Shown piece by piece: positions 18,666 to 63,470 of a stretch of 64,000 nucleotides of DNA. The stretch lies in assembly GCA_965198115.1 (NCBI GenBank), contig OZ240241.1, forward strand, positions 3,264,001 through 3,328,000, written 5' to 3'. The DNA comes from Candidatus Latescibacterota bacterium. Lineage in GTDB: Bacteria > Latescibacterota > UBA2968. The first letter of the stretch is position 1. Each line of letters starts with the position of its first letter. Made by a program: the position numbers and the translations under genes. Under the pieces are notes generated by a model that searched no databases, was not told the DNA's origin, and saw only the letters and a program-made list of their open reading frames with translations.

Positions 18666-20085
18666 GGCTCTATCCGGGTTTCTCAACGGTGAAACTATAG
18701 AATGACAAGGTCATAGATCGTTCCCTACGCTTGGTTGTGTGTGTAGGACAATCAAAGCGAAGGGGGTGCGACCTATGACCGGGAGCAGATTACTATCGAA
18801 ACTGCTGAGATTCAAGGGGTTCCGTGTTGTCAGCTGGTGGTTTGAGGGGAGAAGCTGTTTCGTCATCGCCGTAAAGCCACATAAGAATGGTTGTTGTTGT
18901 CCGGAGTGCGGCCGTCGAGGTAAAATCGTCCGCACAATGCCCCATCCGCGTCGGTGGCGTGACATTCCGGTGTGCGGGTGGAGGGTCTGGCTTCTCTACC
19001 ATCCTCGGGAGATTCGGTGTCCTACCCACGGTCGTGTGGTCGAGGAGATTCCGTGGGCGGAGCGGTTCTCTCGGGTGACGTATCGCTTCGAGTATGCCAT
19101 GCTGCGCTACTGCCAGACCATGACGCAGAAGGCGGCGTCCGAGTTGCTGCGCATCTCTGCCTCGACGCTGTCGGATCTCCTTCACCGATCCATCACGCGG
19201 CTTCGTGAAGGTCATCGTATCCGAGGGCTCAAAACCATCGGGATCGACGAGATCTCCTACGCCAAGCGTCACAGGTACGCCACGCTCGTTTACGATCTGG
19301 ACCGCTCCTGCGTGGTGTGGGTTGGCCGCGGCAGGGCGCGTAAAACGATCGATCGGTTCTTCACAGAGGCTCTCAGTCCCTACCGGAGATCCAAGATCGA
19401 GTGGGCCTGCTGCGACATGAGCGAAGCTTACATCGGAGCCATCCAGGAACACTGTCCGAATGCCAAGCTGGTCCTCGATCGCTTTCACATCGTCAAGGCT
19501 CTCAATGCCGCCGTTGACGAGGTCCGTAAGGACCAGTGGCGTAAAGCTGCCCCGGATGAGCGCAAAGCCATGAAGGGCCTCCGATGGCTCCTCTACCGGC
19601 ACTCAGCGACACGCTCCAGAGGGGATACTCGGACACTCAAAGCACTGGAGAAGGCGAACTACCGAATCTATAGAGCCTGGAGACTCAAGGACGAGTTCGA
19701 GCAGTTCTGGGAATACAAAGCGCCCTGGGCTGCCGAACGCTTCCTGAAATGCTGGACGACGTCCGCACTCAGAAGTCGACTTGAACCCCTGCGAAAGTTC
19801 GTCAGGACCCTGCGACAGCACTTCTTCGGCGTCCTCGCATTCGTGAACACGCGTCTTACCAACGCCATCGCCGAAGGCCTCAACCGAATCGTCCAAATCG
19901 TCAAGAACCGAGCCAGCGGATTCCGCACACTCGACGCATTCAACGATATGATCTTCCTTACCGTCGGAGACATAAACATCCCTGAGCAGATTCCGAAGAG
20001 GTTCCGCACACGCTAACCGCGCCCCCATGCCAGGAACCACGGCACCTTCACCCACTTCAGCTCGTTGAGAGATCCGGATATAGCC
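18666..20085 (+). mobile_element. ISL3 copy 3 (1420 bp; transposase 18739-20016), tandem with copy 2
   Basis: Separated from copy 2 by T8; right flank TTTTTTAT. Confidence 0.93.
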
Positions 20086-51684: not shown

Positions 51685-53104
51685 GGCTCTATCCGGGTTT
51701 CTCAACGGTGAAACTATAGAATGACAAGGTCATAGATCGTTCCCTACGCTTGGTTGTGTGTGTAGGACAATCAAAGCGAAGGGGGTGCGACCTATGACCG
51801 GGAGCAGATTACTATCGAAACTGCTGAGATTCAAGGGGTTCCGTGTTGTCAGCTGGTGGTTTGAGGGGAGAAGCTGCTTCGTCATCGCCGTAAAGCCACA
51901 TAAGAATGGTTGTTGTTGTCCGGAGTTCGGCCGTCGAGGTAAAATCGTCCGCACAATGCCCCATCCGCGTCGGTGGCGTGACATTCCGGTGTGCGGGTGG
52001 AGGGTCTGGCTTCTCTACCATCCTCGGGAGATTCGGTGTCCTACCCACGGTCGTGTGGTCGAGGAGATTCCGTGGGCGGAGCGGTTCTCTCGGGTGACGT
52101 ATCGCTTCGAGTATGCCATGCTGCGCTACTGCCAGACCATGACGCAGAAGGCGGCGTCCGAGTTACTGCGCATCTCTGCCTCGACGCTGTCGGATCTCCT
52201 TCACCGATCCATCACGCGGCTTCGTGAAGGTCATCGTATCCGAGGGCTCAAAACCATCGGGATCGACGAGATCTCCTACGCCAAGCGTCACAGGTACGCC
52301 ACGCTCGTTTACGATCTGGACCGCTCCTGCGTGGTGTGGGTTGGCCGCGGCAGGGCGCGTAAAACGATCGATCGGTTCTTCACAGAGGCTCTCAGTCCCT
52401 ACCGGAGATCCAAGATCGAGTGGGCCTGCTGCGACATGAGCGAAGCTTACATCGGAGCCATCCAGGAACACTGTCCGAATGCCAAGCTGGTCCTCGATCG
52501 CTTTCACATCGTCAAGGCTCTCAATGCCGCCGTTGACGAGGTCCGTAAGGACCAGTGGCGTAAAGCTGCCCCGGATGAGCGCAAAGCCATGAAGGGTCTC
52601 CGATGGCTCCTCTACCGGCACTCAGCGACACGCTCCAGAGGGGATACTCGGACACTCAAAGCACTGGAGAAGGCGAACTACCGAATCTATAGAGCCTGGA
52701 GACTCAAGGACGAGTTCGAGCAGTTCTGGGAATACAAAGCGCCCTGGGCTGCCGAACGCTTCCTGAAATGCTGGACGACGTCCGCACTCAGAAGTCGACT
52801 TGAACCCCTGCGAAAGTTCGTCAGGACCCTGCGACAGCACTTCTTCGGCGTCCTCGCATTCGTGAACACGCGTCTTACCAACGCCATCGCCGAAGGCCTC
52901 AACCGAATCGTCCAAATCGTCAAGAACCGAGCCAGCGGATTCCGCACACTCGACGCATTCAACGATATGATCTTCCTTACCGTCGGAGACATAAACATCC
53001 CTGAGCAGATTCCGAAGAGGTTCCGCACACGCTAACCGCGCCCCCATGCCAGGAACCACGGCACCTTCACCCACTTCATCTCGTTGAGAGATCCGGATAT
53101 AGCC
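51685..53104 (+). mobile_element. ISL3 copy 5 (transposase 51758-53035; zinc finger CPECG changed to CPEFG)
   Basis: Same IRs; flanks AAAGAAAG / CTAAAAAG do not match. Confidence 0.95.
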
Positions 53105-53423
53105 CTAAAAAGAGACTCACCGAATAGAAGAGTCCGGTGATGATTCCGATGGACTTGAGGCTCTCACCCAATACCATCAAAGAAAGGCATTGAATCCAGC
53201 TTGTCAGCATGCCGTAGATCGTCACCACTTCCTTGTGTGGAATGAGGCCCATTTTCAGATCCAAAGCGGGTAGATACACAAAGCCCCAATGGTGACTGTC
53301 GTGATTGACGGTGGATTCAATCCAGCTGAATGCAAAGCTCACGCAGCACACGGCTATCACCGCAGCATCATAGAAACGGTCGTTCCTGAGAATCGCCCGA
53401 CTTCGCTGAAGAGCAATGGACAT
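53105..53423 (-). pseudogene. Membrane protein (possibly GT-C-like), 3'-truncated by ISL3
   Basis: TM helix followed by DSHHWG..LPA....G..PHKE...IYG; frame runs into the IS. Confidence 0.5.
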
Positions 53424-53666
53424 TCCTGGCACGATGATCGTCCTATGGCAGCGGGATCAGGCCGAGCGTAGACGAACTTGGCCGCTGGGGGCGGTAGGTC
53501 GTGGATGGCGTGTTCCCGCCTTCGCGCAGGTGCGCTTCCTCTCGACTTTGCTCGAGACAGGCTCCGGGAACCAGTTGTCAGTCGTCAGGGAAGCTTGCCC
53601 CAGAAAGGGGAAGAGAAACGACGATTGGCGGGAACATGATGACGCGATCGCGAGGCCTGCGCAACC

Positions 53667-53695
53667 TTGACAGAAACCATCGGAAAGTTTAGATT
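53667..53695 (+). promoter_or_regulatory. sigma70 promoter of the tRNA
   Basis: TTGACA-N17-TAGATT, 15 bp before the tRNA. Confidence 0.75.
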
Positions 53696-53710
53696 CTCAG
53701 CCACTTAGGT

Positions 53711-53786
53711 GACCCCGTCGTTCAGTGGCCTAGGACACCTGACTCTCACTCAGGAAACGGGGGTTCGACTCCCCTCGGGGTCACCA
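53711..53786 (+). tRNA. tRNA-Glu (CTC)
   Basis: Acceptor stem GACCCCG/CGGGGTC; anticodon arm CCTGA-CT CTC AC-TCAGG; GGTTCGACTCC T-arm; encoded CCA; 76 nt. Confidence 0.96.
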
Positions 53787-55305
53787 TGCTAACGCAACCC
53801 AGTGAGTCTAGCAGCCCTTCCGGATTGGCTTCCAGGAGGGCTGCTCCTGTTCTGGGAATCTTGATTTGGCGGATGTGTTCCTGGAGCAGGACCTTCTGCT
53901 CCTCGGGCGTTGCGTAGTTCAGAGTCTCCTTCAGGTCCCGAATCGCGGCCTTGATCTTCCTCCGACCCATATTCCCCACCTGAGCTTTCTCAGCACCCTT
54001 CAGTTCCTTCGTCTCCGCCTTTAGCTCAGTCTTCCGGGCCTCACACGCTTTGTATTCCTTCACGAAATCCTCAATCGGGCCGCCGGCCTTAATAGCCGCC
54101 GTCAGGTTCTTCATCTCCCGATCGACCTGCCGAATCTGGCGATCTACCTCCTTCGCCCGTCCGGAATTCGCCAGTCCCGTCTCTTTAAGCTGAGCCCTCA
54201 ACTCCTCGAGAATGGCCTCGATCGTGTCCACGTTGAGCAGCTTCTCGGACAAGAGGTCCAGAACTGCCCCCTCCAGCTTGTCTTTGTTGACTGTCCGGCC
54301 GTTGCCGCAGACAGCCTTGCCCCGGTTCGAGTGGTAGGAGCAGCGGTAGAATTTCCGGGCTTTCCCGTTCTTCTTTGTCGTGGTGATCGTGAAGTTGGCA
54401 CCACATTCCTCGCACTTGAGGAGTCCTGACAACAGAAACTTCGAGCGAGCACCCTTGTGGTTCGTCTTGCCACTGTCAATATGGAAGCTGATCTGTCCCC
54501 TCTGTGCCTGGACCGCCTCCCACAAGCCGGCCTCGATGATCGCCGGATGTGCGCCTTCGGCAATCACCCACTCTTCGTGCGGCTTTGGAACCTTCGTCCC
54601 TCGCTGCAGCTTCTTGTTTCGCCTGGTCTGATTCCAGACACGATTTCCCAAGTAATTCTCGTTTAGGATGATCGTCCGCACCCCAGAAATGTCCCACGTC
54701 CCATCCCGGGGCGAGATGACGCGATCAGCATTCAGATTGTGAGTGATCTTCTTGTAACCCAAACCTTCGGCGTACTCTCTGAAGATGTGCTGAACGATTT
54801 CTGCTTCTTCGGGCACGACCTCGAATGTCGTGTATTCGACCACCTGGCCGTCTTTGTCTGTCTTCCCCTCAGGATCTGGTACCTTCACACGTCGATAGCC
54901 ATAGGGCGCCTTGCCGCCGCCGTGGAATCCCTTCTTCGTGACCTGCTTCTGGCCCTGGAAGGCGTATTCGCCAATCTGGATTGAGTCGAACTCATCCTTC
55001 CATTCGTAGATCCGCTCTATCAGCGTGCCGATATGGCCTTCCGGGACCGGCTGGGACACGAACCTGACATCTACCCCTTGTCGGCGTAGCCCAATCTTGT
55101 TGAAGATGGCCTCATCCTGGTCGCGACCGAATCGTGATGTTGACCAGGCGATTACGACATCGAACGGGCGTTCCCTGTCCTTGGCGATGCCGACCATCTG
55201 GTTGAAGGCTTCACGCCGGAAGGTTGACGTTCCGGATCGGGCCTCATCGACGAAGATGTTGGCGTCATCCAGAGTCCATCCCTGCTTGGTGATATATTCC
55301 CGACA
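53746..55305 (-). pseudogene. Large serine integrase lacking its N-terminal catalytic Ser motif
   Basis: CREY...FVDEARSG, SRFGR, PYGY, HPAII, LLSGLLKCEECG, YRC; in-frame TAG at 55306-55308 with no start; C-terminus overlaps the tRNA. Confidence 0.88.
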
Positions 55306-57885: not shown

Positions 57886-60800
57886 TCAATCGATGAGATC
57901 GCCGAAGAAGTTGTTGAAAATCAGGAAGTCCGCCAGATTGACGCTTTCGTCGCCGTTGGCGTCCATTCGCCGGTGCGGCCTCTCTCCGACGGACCATCCG
58001 ACGTCGCTCGACGACTTGTTGAACGCAAGTATCAGCCGTGTAAAGTCCGCGAACCCGACCGACCCGTCACCGTCCACGTCCGCCCACCGTCCCAGATCGA
58101 GAGCAAGCGTCGTGAAGGAGATCACCGACACGGCGGTCTCTTGGCCGTCGAGCGTCCGATAACGAAGCTGGGCTGTTTCGATCCGGGTCTCATTATTCCC
58201 CGAGGCCTCGAAGAATCCCCCGATCGTTCGGAACGTCACCGTTCCCAGATAGCCATCTCCCGGACCGAAATTGCTGCCTTGTGAAACGATCCTCAACTCG
58301 AGCAGCCCTGGCGCGACGATCTCGGACGCGAACTCGCCGACGATCCAACCGTTCGACACCAGAACGAGGGCATCCCGATCATACGAAATCTGAATGGCCA
58401 CTTCCGACACTTCTGGCAGGTCTGAGACGTGAAGCTCCATCGACGCCGTCTCGTTCACACCTAAGCGTGTCGACAGAAGGTCCTGCAGACCGACGCGCGT
58501 GTCGAGGTCGAGTCGTACGCGATCCCGATTGGGCAACACGGCGCTTCCCGCCACATAAATGATCCGGACGCCCTCGATGTCATCCGTGATCCGAACCTGC
58601 CCTCCGAGGAACCCCGCATCGCTCGGCGCGTAGGTCAGGACGATCGTCTCGCTCTGACCGGGCGGCAAATCGTGGATCTCGGTCGCGTTCGACGTGACGC
58701 CCTGGGCAATCAGTTCGATGTCGAACGACAGCTCGACACCCCCGTCGTTCCGCAGCTCGATCGTGTGCGTACTCGTTTCTCCCACGAGCACGGCGCCGAA
58801 CTCCAGGCTGTCAGGAAGATCGACGATCGGGAACGACAACGTATTTCCGACCAGGTTGTTGTTGGAGAAGTCCGCCTCCAGAATGCTGCGATCCGGGTTG
58901 ATGGTCACACCCCATCGAATAGCCGTCGGTGGCTGGCTCCCGGGGACGATGACGGGAACGTTGACTTGCTTGACCTCATCGGGTTCGAGAATACTCGACA
59001 CCTCGGTCACGCCGACCAGCACATCCGTCTCGTCACCGACCACGTCGTCCGTCGTCAGATAGATCGCCACTTCGAAATCGGCGATCGTGCTACCTTCTCC
59101 AGCGTTCCGGACATCCACAAGAATGTTGTAGAGACGACCGCGTGAAACTTCGTCGGGTCCCTCGAGCGACCCCAGGACGACCAGGTCCGGCGGAAACGGA
59201 ACGACGGTGAACAGAAGTCCGATCTGCGCGTTGTTCGTCTCATTCGACTCGATCACCGTGCCACCCTCGTCCACCACCAGCCCCCAGTGATAGTTGGACA
59301 GCGGCAGGTCGGCGGGAACCATCAGCGGAACTTCCGCCACAACGATCTCGCCCGCACCCAGCCCCCCGGTCACCGTCAGGTCGCCCACCCGCACATCGTC
59401 TTCGTCCCCCGCAAGGGCGTTGCTGCTTATGACGGCCGCAATCACGAAGTCGTCGAGCAGGGGCCCACCCGAGAAGTTCTGGATTTCGGCCGACACGGTG
59501 TAGGTGCCCTCTCTCAGCACCTTCGTCGGCCCGACAGGATCCGTCAAAATATGAAGATCCGCAGCGTCGGACGAAACAACGACCGTCGCCGTCGAAACGC
59601 CCCCGTTGTTGAGCTCGCTAACTTCTGTCTCGAAACTCGTCGCATCCACCAGGGCCGCGTATCGGTAGGTCCCCACCGGATGCTGAGATGGGATCGTCAC
59701 CTGCACTTCGAGCGGTGCCCGTGCGTCGTTCAGCATTTCTTCGGTGTAGGTCGTGTTACCGATCCGGACACCGTCGTCGTTCCCTGCCGTCGCGTCTTCG
59801 CTCAGGTAGATCGAAACCTGAAACGCGCCCGTCGTCGTCCCCGCCCCCACGTTCTGAATCTCCAGACTCACGGTGTGGAAAGAGTTCCAAACGACGAGCT
59901 CGGGTCCCTCCGGAGCGATCGACACGACCAGATCGGCGGGCTGTGCGACCACCGTAAAGGATTGGCCGAGGCGCAGGTTATCGGTCTCTTCCGATTCTTC
60001 GATGAACCCACCGTCGTCGACCGCGGCCGCCCAATTGTAGACCCCTGTCGGTTGGACAGCTGAAACGATGACGGGGACGCTCACCATCAGTTTGTCACCC
60101 GCCCCGATCGGGTTGAGAATCGCCGTGTCGCCGACACGAATGTCATCCTCGTTTCCGACGATCAGGTCGGTCGTCAGGTAGACGGCCACGTCGAATGCCG
60201 TGTCAGTCGGCCCGTCGCCCTGGTTCTCGATCTCGAGCGTCACCGTCGTCGACACACCCTGGTAGATGGCCGCGTCGCCCTCGGGTTGGATCGAGATGGT
60301 CAGATCGGGTTCGGTCAGGATGATCTGGACATCGCCGCCAACCTGGACGTTGTTGCTTTCGTCGGTCTCCGGCTGAGTGCCGAAAGCATCGACGACGGCG
60401 ATCCATCGATAGGTGCCTTCGGCCAGGTCCTCGGGCACGAAAACATTGATGTTCTGTGTGCGACTCTCACTCGGATTGACGCTATCCTGCAGCACAACAC
60501 TTCCGACCTGCAAATCGCCTGCGTCGAAAAGGGTATCAACACTCAGGTAGATCGTGACGTCATACGGCGCGAACGACGTTCCCGAACCCGCGTTCATGAC
60601 TGTGACCGACACGCTCCCCGACGTCCCCAAAGACATCAGACTCGGGCCGGTCGGGCCGTCGCTCACAACAAAATCAGGCGGCGTCGGTGCGACCTCCACC
60701 CCGTTCCCGACACCGGCGTTGTTGTCCTCATCGCTTTCGGCGACCACGTTGCTGGCGTCGACCTGAACAAGCCATTGGTAGGCCCCAAGGGCCTGAAGCG

Positions 60801-60962
60801 AAGGAACCCTGATCGGAATCGCCAGAGATCGCGTCTCACCCGGGTCGAGCACGACGGCAACCCCCTTGTCCCCGACCTTTTCGATCGTGGAGGGCTGGTC
60901 GTCCTCGCTCAGATAGGCCGTCACGTCGAACGTGCCGGAGGTCGGGGTGTCGCCCTGATTCC
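57886..60962 (-). pseudogene. CARDB-repeat surface protein with Ig-like, cohesin-like and dockerin-like C-terminus, 5'-truncated
   Basis: About 6 repeats of PDL.V...N.G.G....F.V.IYLS.D...E..E.NN; LEFGAVLVG; tail ADVDGDGSVGFADF / DANGDESVNLADF; stops mid-repeat at the mini-element. Confidence 0.85.
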
Positions 60963-61724
60963 TGTTACGGCTTACGATAGATTCCCGCCCAGATTACGCT
61001 ATTCGCATTCTCACGCACCAAGAACTGACGACCCGGAGATAAGGGGGATGAACTCTCTGGGCGTTCCGATGTAGACCGCGCCCTTTTCATTTTCCCACAC
61101 GCCCGAGAAATAGGCTCTCGAACCGCGAAAATAGCGCGTTTCGACCGATTAGGCTCAAGACGTGGCCAGGCCAGGTCCCAGCGGGCATAGGGGGGTGCGG
61201 AAAACCTGTGGCCGTCCGACCGGAGACCGGTCATGTCCCGTTTCTTTTGCTAATCCGTCCTAATTTCAGTCCCGGACTGGCGCATCGCGGCCGTTGTCGA
61301 CGAAAGGGGGTTTTCAGGTGTCGGAAACACTTAAACCAGTTCAAAAACAAGAGCTTGCGTCTGTCGACAAGGCGGCTTTGAAGGTGCTTCCCGAAAATGG
61401 CGAAGCGGGGTAGAAAATCGGCCGTTTCCCTGGCGGTGTTGCCGATGGCGGACCCGTCGGAGGTCGAGAGCGTTTCGCGTCCCGATCCCCCGGAATGTGC
61501 CAAACGCGTTCGCGTAAAGAAAGGGACATCAGGCGTAGGTCCGACAACCGCTTTTGGCCGTTGCGCCTTGTAAGTACTCCTATGGCACTATGTCGCATGG
61601 CCGCCAGATCTTAGGTGACCCTCAACTCATTAGGGAACGGTCTCCACTGTTAACCGTATTGAAACGATTCTGCCTATTTTGCGAATAGCTTAAGCCAGGC
61701 GGAGAATTATCGCAAGGCGTCACA
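60963..61724. mobile_element. 762-bp non-autonomous element with TGT...ACA ends
   Basis: 45-bp terminal inverted repeats, 34/45 identical; no credible ORF; both neighbouring genes break at its ends. Confidence 0.78.
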
Positions 61725-63470
61725 GCCATCCAGATGCTCTACCTCGGTGTGGCCCTACAGAGCCGAGGTCAGACCCGGGCCCTGGCCGACGGCATCGGCA
61801 AACCTGTTGCGATTGCGCTAGCCGGGCTCGGTCTTGTCCTCGCGACCGACATACCGCCCCAAGTGCTCGCCATCACCACGGCCGTCGCCGCCGTTGCCTG
61901 GATCTTTCTGGCCCGCCTGAACCACGCGGCCTACGTTCGCGCCCTCATCGCGTCGATCGGCTCTCATCGCTTCGACGCATCGGCCGAAACGGGCCCCGTT
62001 CAGGACAAGGCCTTCGAAGATCACCTCCGCAACGCTCTGGCGACCGGCTCGGATGAGGAAATTACCTATCTGCTGGGCGTCGTCTCCACGATCGACGCGG
62101 ACTGGACGCCCGAGTTCCGTCGCGTACTCGACCGGGAGTCGCCCCACATCAAGGTCATGGCACTGATACATCTCACCGCCAACGGGACGACGTCCGACGC
62201 ACTGGCGGCTCAGCGCCATCTGTCCCACGTCGATCCGTCCGTCCGTGCCGCCGCCATTGAAGCCCTGGCAGCCCTGTCGGAAGACGATCCGCTCGAAGAC
62301 ATCGAACGATGCCTGGACGATCCGGACCCGGAACCCCGTGCGGCCGCGATCGCCTGCATGATCGGAAGCGGTGACCTGGACCGCCTGCTCAGCGCCGGCG
62401 CGTCACTCAAGACCTTGCTAGAATCGCAGGCTCCAACAGAACGGATCGGCGCGGCGACCGCCCTTTCCAAGATCGAGCGCGGGGGCATGGTTCGGCCCCT
62501 CGTCCGCCTGTTGCAGGATGACGATCCCGAGGTCGTCATCGCCGCCCTCCGGGCGTGTCGCAACCAGCAAGACCCCCTCCTCCTGCCCGTCATCACGCCC
62601 CTCCTGGCGGAACCGCACGTGGCCCACGAAGCGGCGGACACGTTGAAGGCCTTCGATTCGAGCGTTCTGGACCACCTCATCCCCTACATCGAGCTCGCCC
62701 CGGAAGAAGGTGCCTTCGACGGTGCCGCCGGAATACCCCCAATCCTGGCCGAAATCGGGGACGAGGCCTCCGTCCCGGTTCTGGCAAAAGCGTCTCGCTC
62801 CGCCGACCTCACCCTCAGAGCGCAAGCAATCGAGGCGCTCGCACAGCTCATCATCCGCCTAGGTGCCCAGAATCGCTACGCCGAGGAGACCCAGGAACTT
62901 GCCAGGGGCGAGATCGATGCTTGCCTCCAGTGCCGCGTGCGTCGAGCGGCTGTTCGAACCGCCTCTCGGGCTCAGGTCCTCGTCGATGCACTCGATCACC
63001 AGGCCGGCATCCACCTCACGAATGCGCTAAGGCTCCTCGACCTCACCACGCCCGAAGTCGATTTCCTTCAGCTGCAGGACTCCATTCGGCTGGGTGGGCC
63101 CCAGCGTGCGAGCGCGCTCGAGGTCGTCGACAACGTTGTCAAAGGACCCCTTAAGACGGACCTTCTGGCCTGCCTGGACGGCCGCACGCCGAGCGTGCTC
63201 AGCCAGGAGGATCCTCTGGACGCCATCCTCGCGAGCGACACGTCGGAATGGGTGCGGATCGGGACCCTCTTCGCGGCCTCAGAGGGACCGGACCGAGAGC
63301 TGATTCGGCAATCGACCACTCACTTGGAGCCCGTCGTGCGGGAAACCGCCCTGTTCGCCCTCCACCACGTGGCACCCGCGTCGGCCGTCGAATCCGCACA
63401 GCGTCTCAACTCGGATCCGGCGGTCGTCGTGCGAGACATAGCGAACCAGATTCTGAATGAATCTTCTTAA
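61725..63470 (+). pseudogene. Npt/TLC-type transporter plus HEAT-repeat protein, 5'-truncated
   Basis: Starts in the last TM segment (QMLYL..R...RA..DGIGKP, Y..AL..S), followed by HEAT repeats. Confidence 0.75.

Follow-up and report, generated by a model that had tools for sequence, protein, structure and literature searches.

A gene-less mini-transposon with 7-bp target duplications in a Latescibacterota chromosome, with ends likely derived from a Mu-like prophage and a probable deletion at its side

The window analysed here is a stretch of 64,000 nucleotides from a Candidatus Latescibacterota bacterium (source genome G000; 8.43 Mb, one contig). It contains a short element lying between two divergent genes that both lack their 5' parts, and the features of this locus are collected in Table 1. 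The preliminary description had presented the element as non-coding, 762 bp long and bounded by TGT/ACA termini, and its ends, length and flanks were found as claimed. The longest ORF of the window copy encodes 90 aa and the longest ORF is not the same across copies, indicating that no conserved ORF and no transposase are present. An Rfam scan of the element gave no match at E ≤ 1, and a scan of the element for promoters and terminators detected none, no outward sigma-70 promoter included. The terminal inverted repeat is the longest of the region, extending over 51 nt including a chance extension at 75% identity, and the two 45-nt ends are identical at 34 of 45 positions. The motif recurring at a 22-bp spacing (element positions 10 and 32) was recovered clearly in the left end and more loosely in the right end, where the two sites share 5 of 8 positions. 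Flanks differing over 5 bp (ATTCC and GCCAT) had also been described; they do differ, but the informative length is 7 bp, over which they mismatch at 4 of 7 positions.

Table 1. Features of the element and its surroundings, in window positions.
Feature	Position	Strand	Remarks
Non-autonomous mini-transposon	60963..61724	+	762 bp; corresponds to G000 C1:3324963-3325724; one of 18 left-right pairs in the genome
Left end, TGT	60963..61007	+	Predicted transposase sites from 60972 and 60994 (22 bp apart)
Right end, TGT	61680..61724	-	Predicted transposase sites 22 bp apart
Left 7-bp flank TGATTCC	60956..60962	+	Inside the CARDB gene; target preference 5/5
Right 7-bp flank GCCATCC	61725..61731	+	Inside the TLC/HEAT gene; target preference 4/5; unlike the left flank
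Interior segment with variable 6-nt core	61219..61362	+	92% similar to the DNA preceding a small-terminase-like ORF elsewhere in G000; possible captured cos-like site (putative)
Interior segment (element 436-633)	61398..61595	+	96% identical to a non-element locus, G000 8403001-8402803
CARDB-repeat/Ig/dockerin surface-protein gene, 5'-truncated	57886..60962	-	Pfam; about 57-64 N-terminal aa and signal peptide missing
TLC ATP/ADP-transporter and HEAT-repeat gene, 5'-truncated	61725..63470	+	332 N-terminal aa (TLC membrane domain) missing

Besides the 18 left-right pairs, the genome holds unpaired pieces, namely an orphan left part (5976093) and, at 1427051 and 25523, two orphan right ends. Seventeen pairs measure 751–823 bp, and one reaches 3598 bp owing to two 1.4-kb insertions. 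The window copy shares 89.0–99.3% identity over aligned columns with 16 other copies, a range from which the 3.6-kb copy is omitted. A 5-bp target duplication had been expected; the genome-wide search of ends instead gave an exact 7-bp duplication in 12 of the 18 copies, at different sites, and a 5-bp duplication in none. The remaining six comprise one copy with 7 bp and one mismatch, two that bound a composite, one with a 4-bp overlap, and two without duplication, namely the window copy and the copy at 7511903. The target preference is symmetric, N-S-W-W-W-S-N, as derived from 13 duplicated targets. All 35 matches to the two-site end pattern in G000 are element ends, and no other end-like sites occur in this genome. 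At 1426913, a left end is fused to the right-end region of a different copy. The element is real, non-coding and mobile, exhibiting the terminal inverted repeats, dispersed duplicated copies and lack of an internal transposase that define MITEs. The 18 copies with inverted ends and no conserved internal ORF support the earlier proposal of a MITE-like unit, which would be mobilised in trans. Outside G000, the whole element was found in 0 of 40 relatives, its exact right-end 25-mer was found in no metagenome contig, and no match was obtained among plasmids and phages; contigs of other studies contain variants of it, one of them complete (X4). G000 is very rich in IS copies, and just left of the locus (window 51758-55197) a mobile region is marked by an ISL3 transposase together with a large serine recombinase whose resolvase domain is short.

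Both neighbouring frames are open up to the element, over 1024 and 581 codons, confirming that their 5' loss falls exactly at its ends. Residue 1 of the CARDB protein aligns to residue 58 of the ortholog in G005 and residue 65 of that in G006, and the alignment of the TLC/HEAT protein to its 911-aa ortholog in G001 starts at residue 333. All 12 TLC/HEAT homologs at E ≤ 1e-100 are 896–923 aa long, with the TLC domain in 11 of them, and no near-identical full-length allele occurs among the scored candidates. Both genes are thus likely inactivated, as judged from these alignments, one having no transporter domain and the other no signal peptide. The orthologs are divergent neighbours in five relatives (G001, G003, G005, G009 and G012), and coordinate arithmetic places the junction points approximately 1.4–1.55 kb apart in four of the five. 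The missing segment of G001 finds only paralogs of 27–29% identity in G000. Since the genes were already divergent neighbours in relatives and the missing piece was not found in G000, a deletion is indicated rather than an inversion. The adjacent deletion suggested previously hence holds, with about 1.4 kb present between the genes in relatives and missing at the window copy, and the inversion offered beside it is not borne out, the missing gene halves being found nowhere else in G000. Both flanks fit the target preference (sum 9/10; joint P of 0.005 from local sequence), so that the transposase probably produced both junctions.

The apparent deletion could also have been produced by the assembly, if a pair of direct copies, separated by 1.4 kb and both bearing a 7-bp duplication of their own, had been collapsed into one. 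In X1, a run possibly made from the source sample, the right junction is crossed by a contig that extends 76 letters over it, and the left junction is covered only by a contig entering the left end by 29 letters, under the 31-letter rule; no contig of this run spans the element as a whole, which leaves some room for such an artefact. Against it, the single 8.4-Mb contig resolves 18 copies as well as an 11.3-kb two-copy composite, and a join of distant copies is excluded because the flanks adjoin in relatives. The depth in X1 is 9–10 on the flanks and 154–240 inside the element, which agrees with the copy number without being a measure of it. We consider a collapsed assembly highly improbable.

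The composite (1426120-1437467; 11.3 kb) contains two element copies as direct repeats, shows CTACAGA on both outer sides and splits an IS256-like gene; its arrangement fits a cointegrate or a composite transposon. Inside it, approximately 100 bp beyond one right end, lie a DUF3102 gene (281 aa) and an rve DDE transposase gene (460 aa, TnpA); the flank separating this right end from DUF3102 agrees with the target preference at 2 of 5 positions only. By chance, an element copy would fall within 1 kb of the single TnpA locus with a probability of about 0.4%. The best PHROG of TnpA is phrog_310, transposase (E 3.6e-27), and residues D154, D240 and E276 are invariant in 16 aligned sequences. Weak PDB matches of the TnpA profile were to IS5376 IstA (1e-9) and Tn7 TnsB (6e-4). 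No close named phage was found for TnpA, the one GenBank phage reaching 31% identity over 34% of the length. The 15 closest homologs are 523–550 aa long with 32–59% identity, and in comparison with their length of about 538 aa the 460-aa protein of G000 lacks some 80 C-terminal residues. The only full tnpA copy of G000 is that of the composite locus; elsewhere the gene is represented by three 3' fragments. The early stop is real, as it also occurs in two of these fragments and in short-read contigs. Contigs of three other studies contain element variants with no cover of the transposase, at low depth. The composite also encodes an ECF sigma factor and, after it, a protein of 1069 aa (G000 1427405-1431186; L026:5406-9187), in which domains of RNA polymerase beta (Rpb2_3, Rpb2_6) are combined with one of beta-prime (Rpb1_2), and which has a 39% paralog at G000 3368600-3371731.

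Of the 168 genomes of the phylum, 8 contain homologs of TnpA (E ≤ 1e-15), and homologs were also detected in viral contigs; they stand in the prophage gene order of repressor, DUF3102-like, TnpA and AAA TnpB. In G105 the prophage further carries Portal_Mu, Phage_Mu_F, Mu-like_gpT and terminase genes. Its TnpA-side end was recovered by a pattern built from the element alone, and its tail-side end, set independently by the divergence of two copies, is identical to the element right end at positions 9–20 (12/12). A second site lies 22 bp inward at both G105 ends, in the same register as in the element. The end identity is modest, as the element left end shares 25/41 and 27/41 positions with the two G105 ends, an end in L055 gives 22–23/41, and a cargo gene of G105 contains a site that by chance reaches 26/41 against the element right end. 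The same end layout recurs in six further phage ends. Among the 168 genomes of the phylum, the two-site pattern matches only G000 and G105, the two with the best TnpA matches, though this result is not independent, the pattern having been built partly from G105; it matches none of the viral contigs. A narrow TnpA alignment search found nothing in the genome or the viral contigs, and no intact parent with the exact ends of the element was found. One record of the transposase family is labelled Candidatus Latescibacterota, which is a hint at the host group only.

The flanks of these relatives were compared as well. G105 offers one TnpA-side and two tail-side ends, whose flanks are unpaired at 5, 6 or 7 bp; the left end in G169 lies beyond the contig, the right end in G171 has a flank of 3 bp, and an inverted-repeat scan of the G051 prophage returned only noise. 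The 7-bp stagger is hence observed for the element only, no relative having both ends with matching flanks. The G105 prophage is present in at least two copies (C1/C2 contig ends), one of which is cut at the capsid region, and its unpaired flanks suggest rearrangements there too. Ends starting with TA are frequent in prophages of the TnpA family (L091:9859, L136 ~178, L100:17193, L138:3451, L055:2778, L102:12 and L105:2); G105 combines one TG and one TA end, and G171:C85 seems to have TA at both, judged by motif register only. At L055:2778-9193 an end and a few tail genes are followed directly by tnpA-tnpB, resembling an internally deleted prophage.

These data suggest that the parent was most likely a transposable phage, and not Tn7, Tn5053, Tn552 or IS21. 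Among the parents named in the preliminary description, the Mu-like type gained support, since the linked TnpA is of a prophage family and the G105 ends share the register; a TnsB/TniA parent of the Tn7, Tn5053 or Tn552 type was not upheld, as the linked transposase belongs to Mu-like prophages. A non-phage DDE transposon of these types, or an IS21/IS481-family IS, with the Mu-like transposase adjacent by chance, has nevertheless to be weighed. TGT...ACA ends with repeated sites are common to the Tn7, Tn5053, Tn552 and IS21-type families, IS21-family duplications of 4–8 bp take in a length of 7, and G000 holds 22 IstB-like and 37 rve matches. Yet the best end-like sites within 4 kb of 30 IstB/rve positions score 20–24/41, equal to background, except for one element copy, and none of the IS21, IS481 and IS3 loci of G000 carries ends of this type. 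The profile PF09299 gave no match in G000, where its controls were equally silent. The probability of about 0.4% given above and the shared register of the prophage ends speak further against a chance neighbour, and we regard a non-phage parent as very unlikely.

The reading that we prefer, with a probability of roughly 0.6, is that this is a gene-less mini-transposon of 18 copies with 7-bp target duplications, its ends likely taken from a Mu-like prophage, and that about 1.4 kb of DNA beside the window copy was probably removed when one end transposed 1.4 kb away on the same chromosome. TnpA of the prophage family would bind the two 22-bp-spaced sites of each end and cut the target with a 7-nt stagger, and the attack of one end on a site 1.4 kb off would remove the DNA between them. 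The parent prophage would have decayed in G000, leaving the truncated TnpA. No TnpB, head or tail genes of this prophage family were found in this genome, where the TnpB proteins of relatives match only an AAA protein at 1738318, with 23–26% identity and far from tnpA. The C-terminus of MuA contacts MuB, and nearby targets are used when MuB is absent. In Mu, MuB promotes integration into MuB-bound DNA, and the removal of MuB near the ends provides immunity (PMC2837660). Loss of the MuB-like TnpB and of the TnpA tail may thus have abolished target immunity and favoured nearby targets. Such nearby attacks would explain the deletion in the window, the mismatched copy at 7511903 and the left end at 1426913.

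The same element and parent could have produced this locus by another route, in which two insertions in the same orientation, approximately 1.4 kb apart, were followed by homologous recombination. Two unlike flanks, each in line with the target preference, would be expected on this route too, and the window copy is a patchwork of variants found in different copies. Such a patchwork is, however, seen in all copies, and without strong local hopping two hits would have to fall within 1.4 kb of each other in an 8.4-Mb genome with 18 copies. The left end at 1426913, moreover, indicates that one-ended attacks on nearby DNA occur. Sequence alone cannot tell intramolecular transposition from two insertions with recombination; on the points listed, the latter seems rather unlikely.

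The interior of the element raises a separate possibility that is compatible with one-ended transposition of a phage-derived unit. Element positions ~221-405 are 88–95% like DNA that ends 30 bp before a small ORF at G000 8396816. Intact members of this ORF family match terminase small subunit phrog_2538 (E 6e-8 and 3e-8), and the 6-nt core varies among copies within conserved flanks, also in other samples. The element may then have been kept because its middle carries a captured cos-like site, letting terminases package the element with flanking DNA. Several observations weigh against this: such upstream DNA precedes only one of the nine ORF starts listed, one of the nine being a false match; the conserved-flank pattern was found in no viral contig; the element has no match in phages or plasmids; no large terminase was seen at the six loci inspected; and the terminase match itself rests mostly on HTH. 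A TerS-like protein was likewise found in none of the viral contigs, and G000 was the only one of the 168 phylum genomes to have it. Retention through a cos-like site is accordingly regarded as doubtful, and the interior suggests, from one locus only, capture from a phage-satellite-like island, possibly with a cos-like site. G000 has 13 matches to the small-terminase-like HTH family (for example at 18879, 429756, 434439, 856285, 5973774 and 7333492), which are mostly broken, two of them beside tRNA-like sequence, and which are possibly decayed phage satellites. The orphan left part (G000 5976093-5982105; L024:6094-12106) stands beside a small-terminase-like gene and a P4-type integrase.

Several known systems resemble the element. 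In the text of PMC8705779 on Mu- and B3-type phages, Mu has a target duplication of 5 bp, B3 and 97 Leptospira prophages have one of 6 bp, and the footprint of B3/Tn552 is 6 bp. These phages and engineered mini-Mu share TG...CA ends, repeated transposase sites and DUF3102 before a DDE TnpA with the present family, and mini-Mu is likewise an ends-only unit moved in trans with host rearrangements (PMC8705779). The element differs from them in its 7-bp rather than 5- or 6-bp duplication, and in being natural, gene-less, about 0.8 kb long and present in 18 copies. It consequently falls outside the Mu and B3 groups in the sense of that paper, though its sequence suggests that it works like them. 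Relatives of TnpA have ends starting with TA like the Leptospira TA-TA prophages (WETA1; PMC8705779), whereas the element has TG at both ends and a 7-bp instead of a 6-bp duplication. Prokaryotic MITEs, given as 50–800 bp long with duplications of 2–10 bp in PMC11602168, are similarly non-autonomous with inverted ends; the element lies at their upper size limit, and its parent would be a phage rather than an IS. The terms 'transposable phage' and 'Mu-like' do not occur in the main text of that paper. IS21, Tn7, Tn5053 and Tn552 share TG...CA ends with iterated sites, and the 7-bp duplication sets the element apart from Tn552 (6 bp) and from Tn7 and Tn5053. Tn7 and Tn5053 duplicate 5 bp. Tn552-II was considered and set aside as not comparable, since in the description of PMC12486829 it has a 7-bp att, produces no duplication and, in the manner of Tn554, relies on tnpABC and a circular intermediate.

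Neither a transposable phage with a 7-bp duplication nor a MITE derived from a phage was found described in the literature covered, most subscription journals being outside its scope. That an undescribed phage clade with a 7-nt stagger exists is, taken alone, quite probable. The fuller picture, in which a natural gene-less mini-Mu of this clade captured a cos-like site with interchangeable cores, so that its spread by a phage transposase seeds packaging starts, and hence transduction, across the chromosome, is put forward as speculation with little likelihood.

Deletions such as this one are a common result of transposition. As a rule, MITEs have been traced back to insertion sequences; here a transposable phage would have decayed into a MITE family that amplified and rearranged the host chromosome. 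The TA-starting relatives bear on a question left open in PMC8705779, namely whether such ends exist outside Leptospira. A 7-bp duplication would also extend the 5/6-bp rule used for finding transposable prophages (PMC8705779), and current screens may miss such prophages. As a natural variant, the element would further help in studying how Mu-type transposases fix their target stagger.
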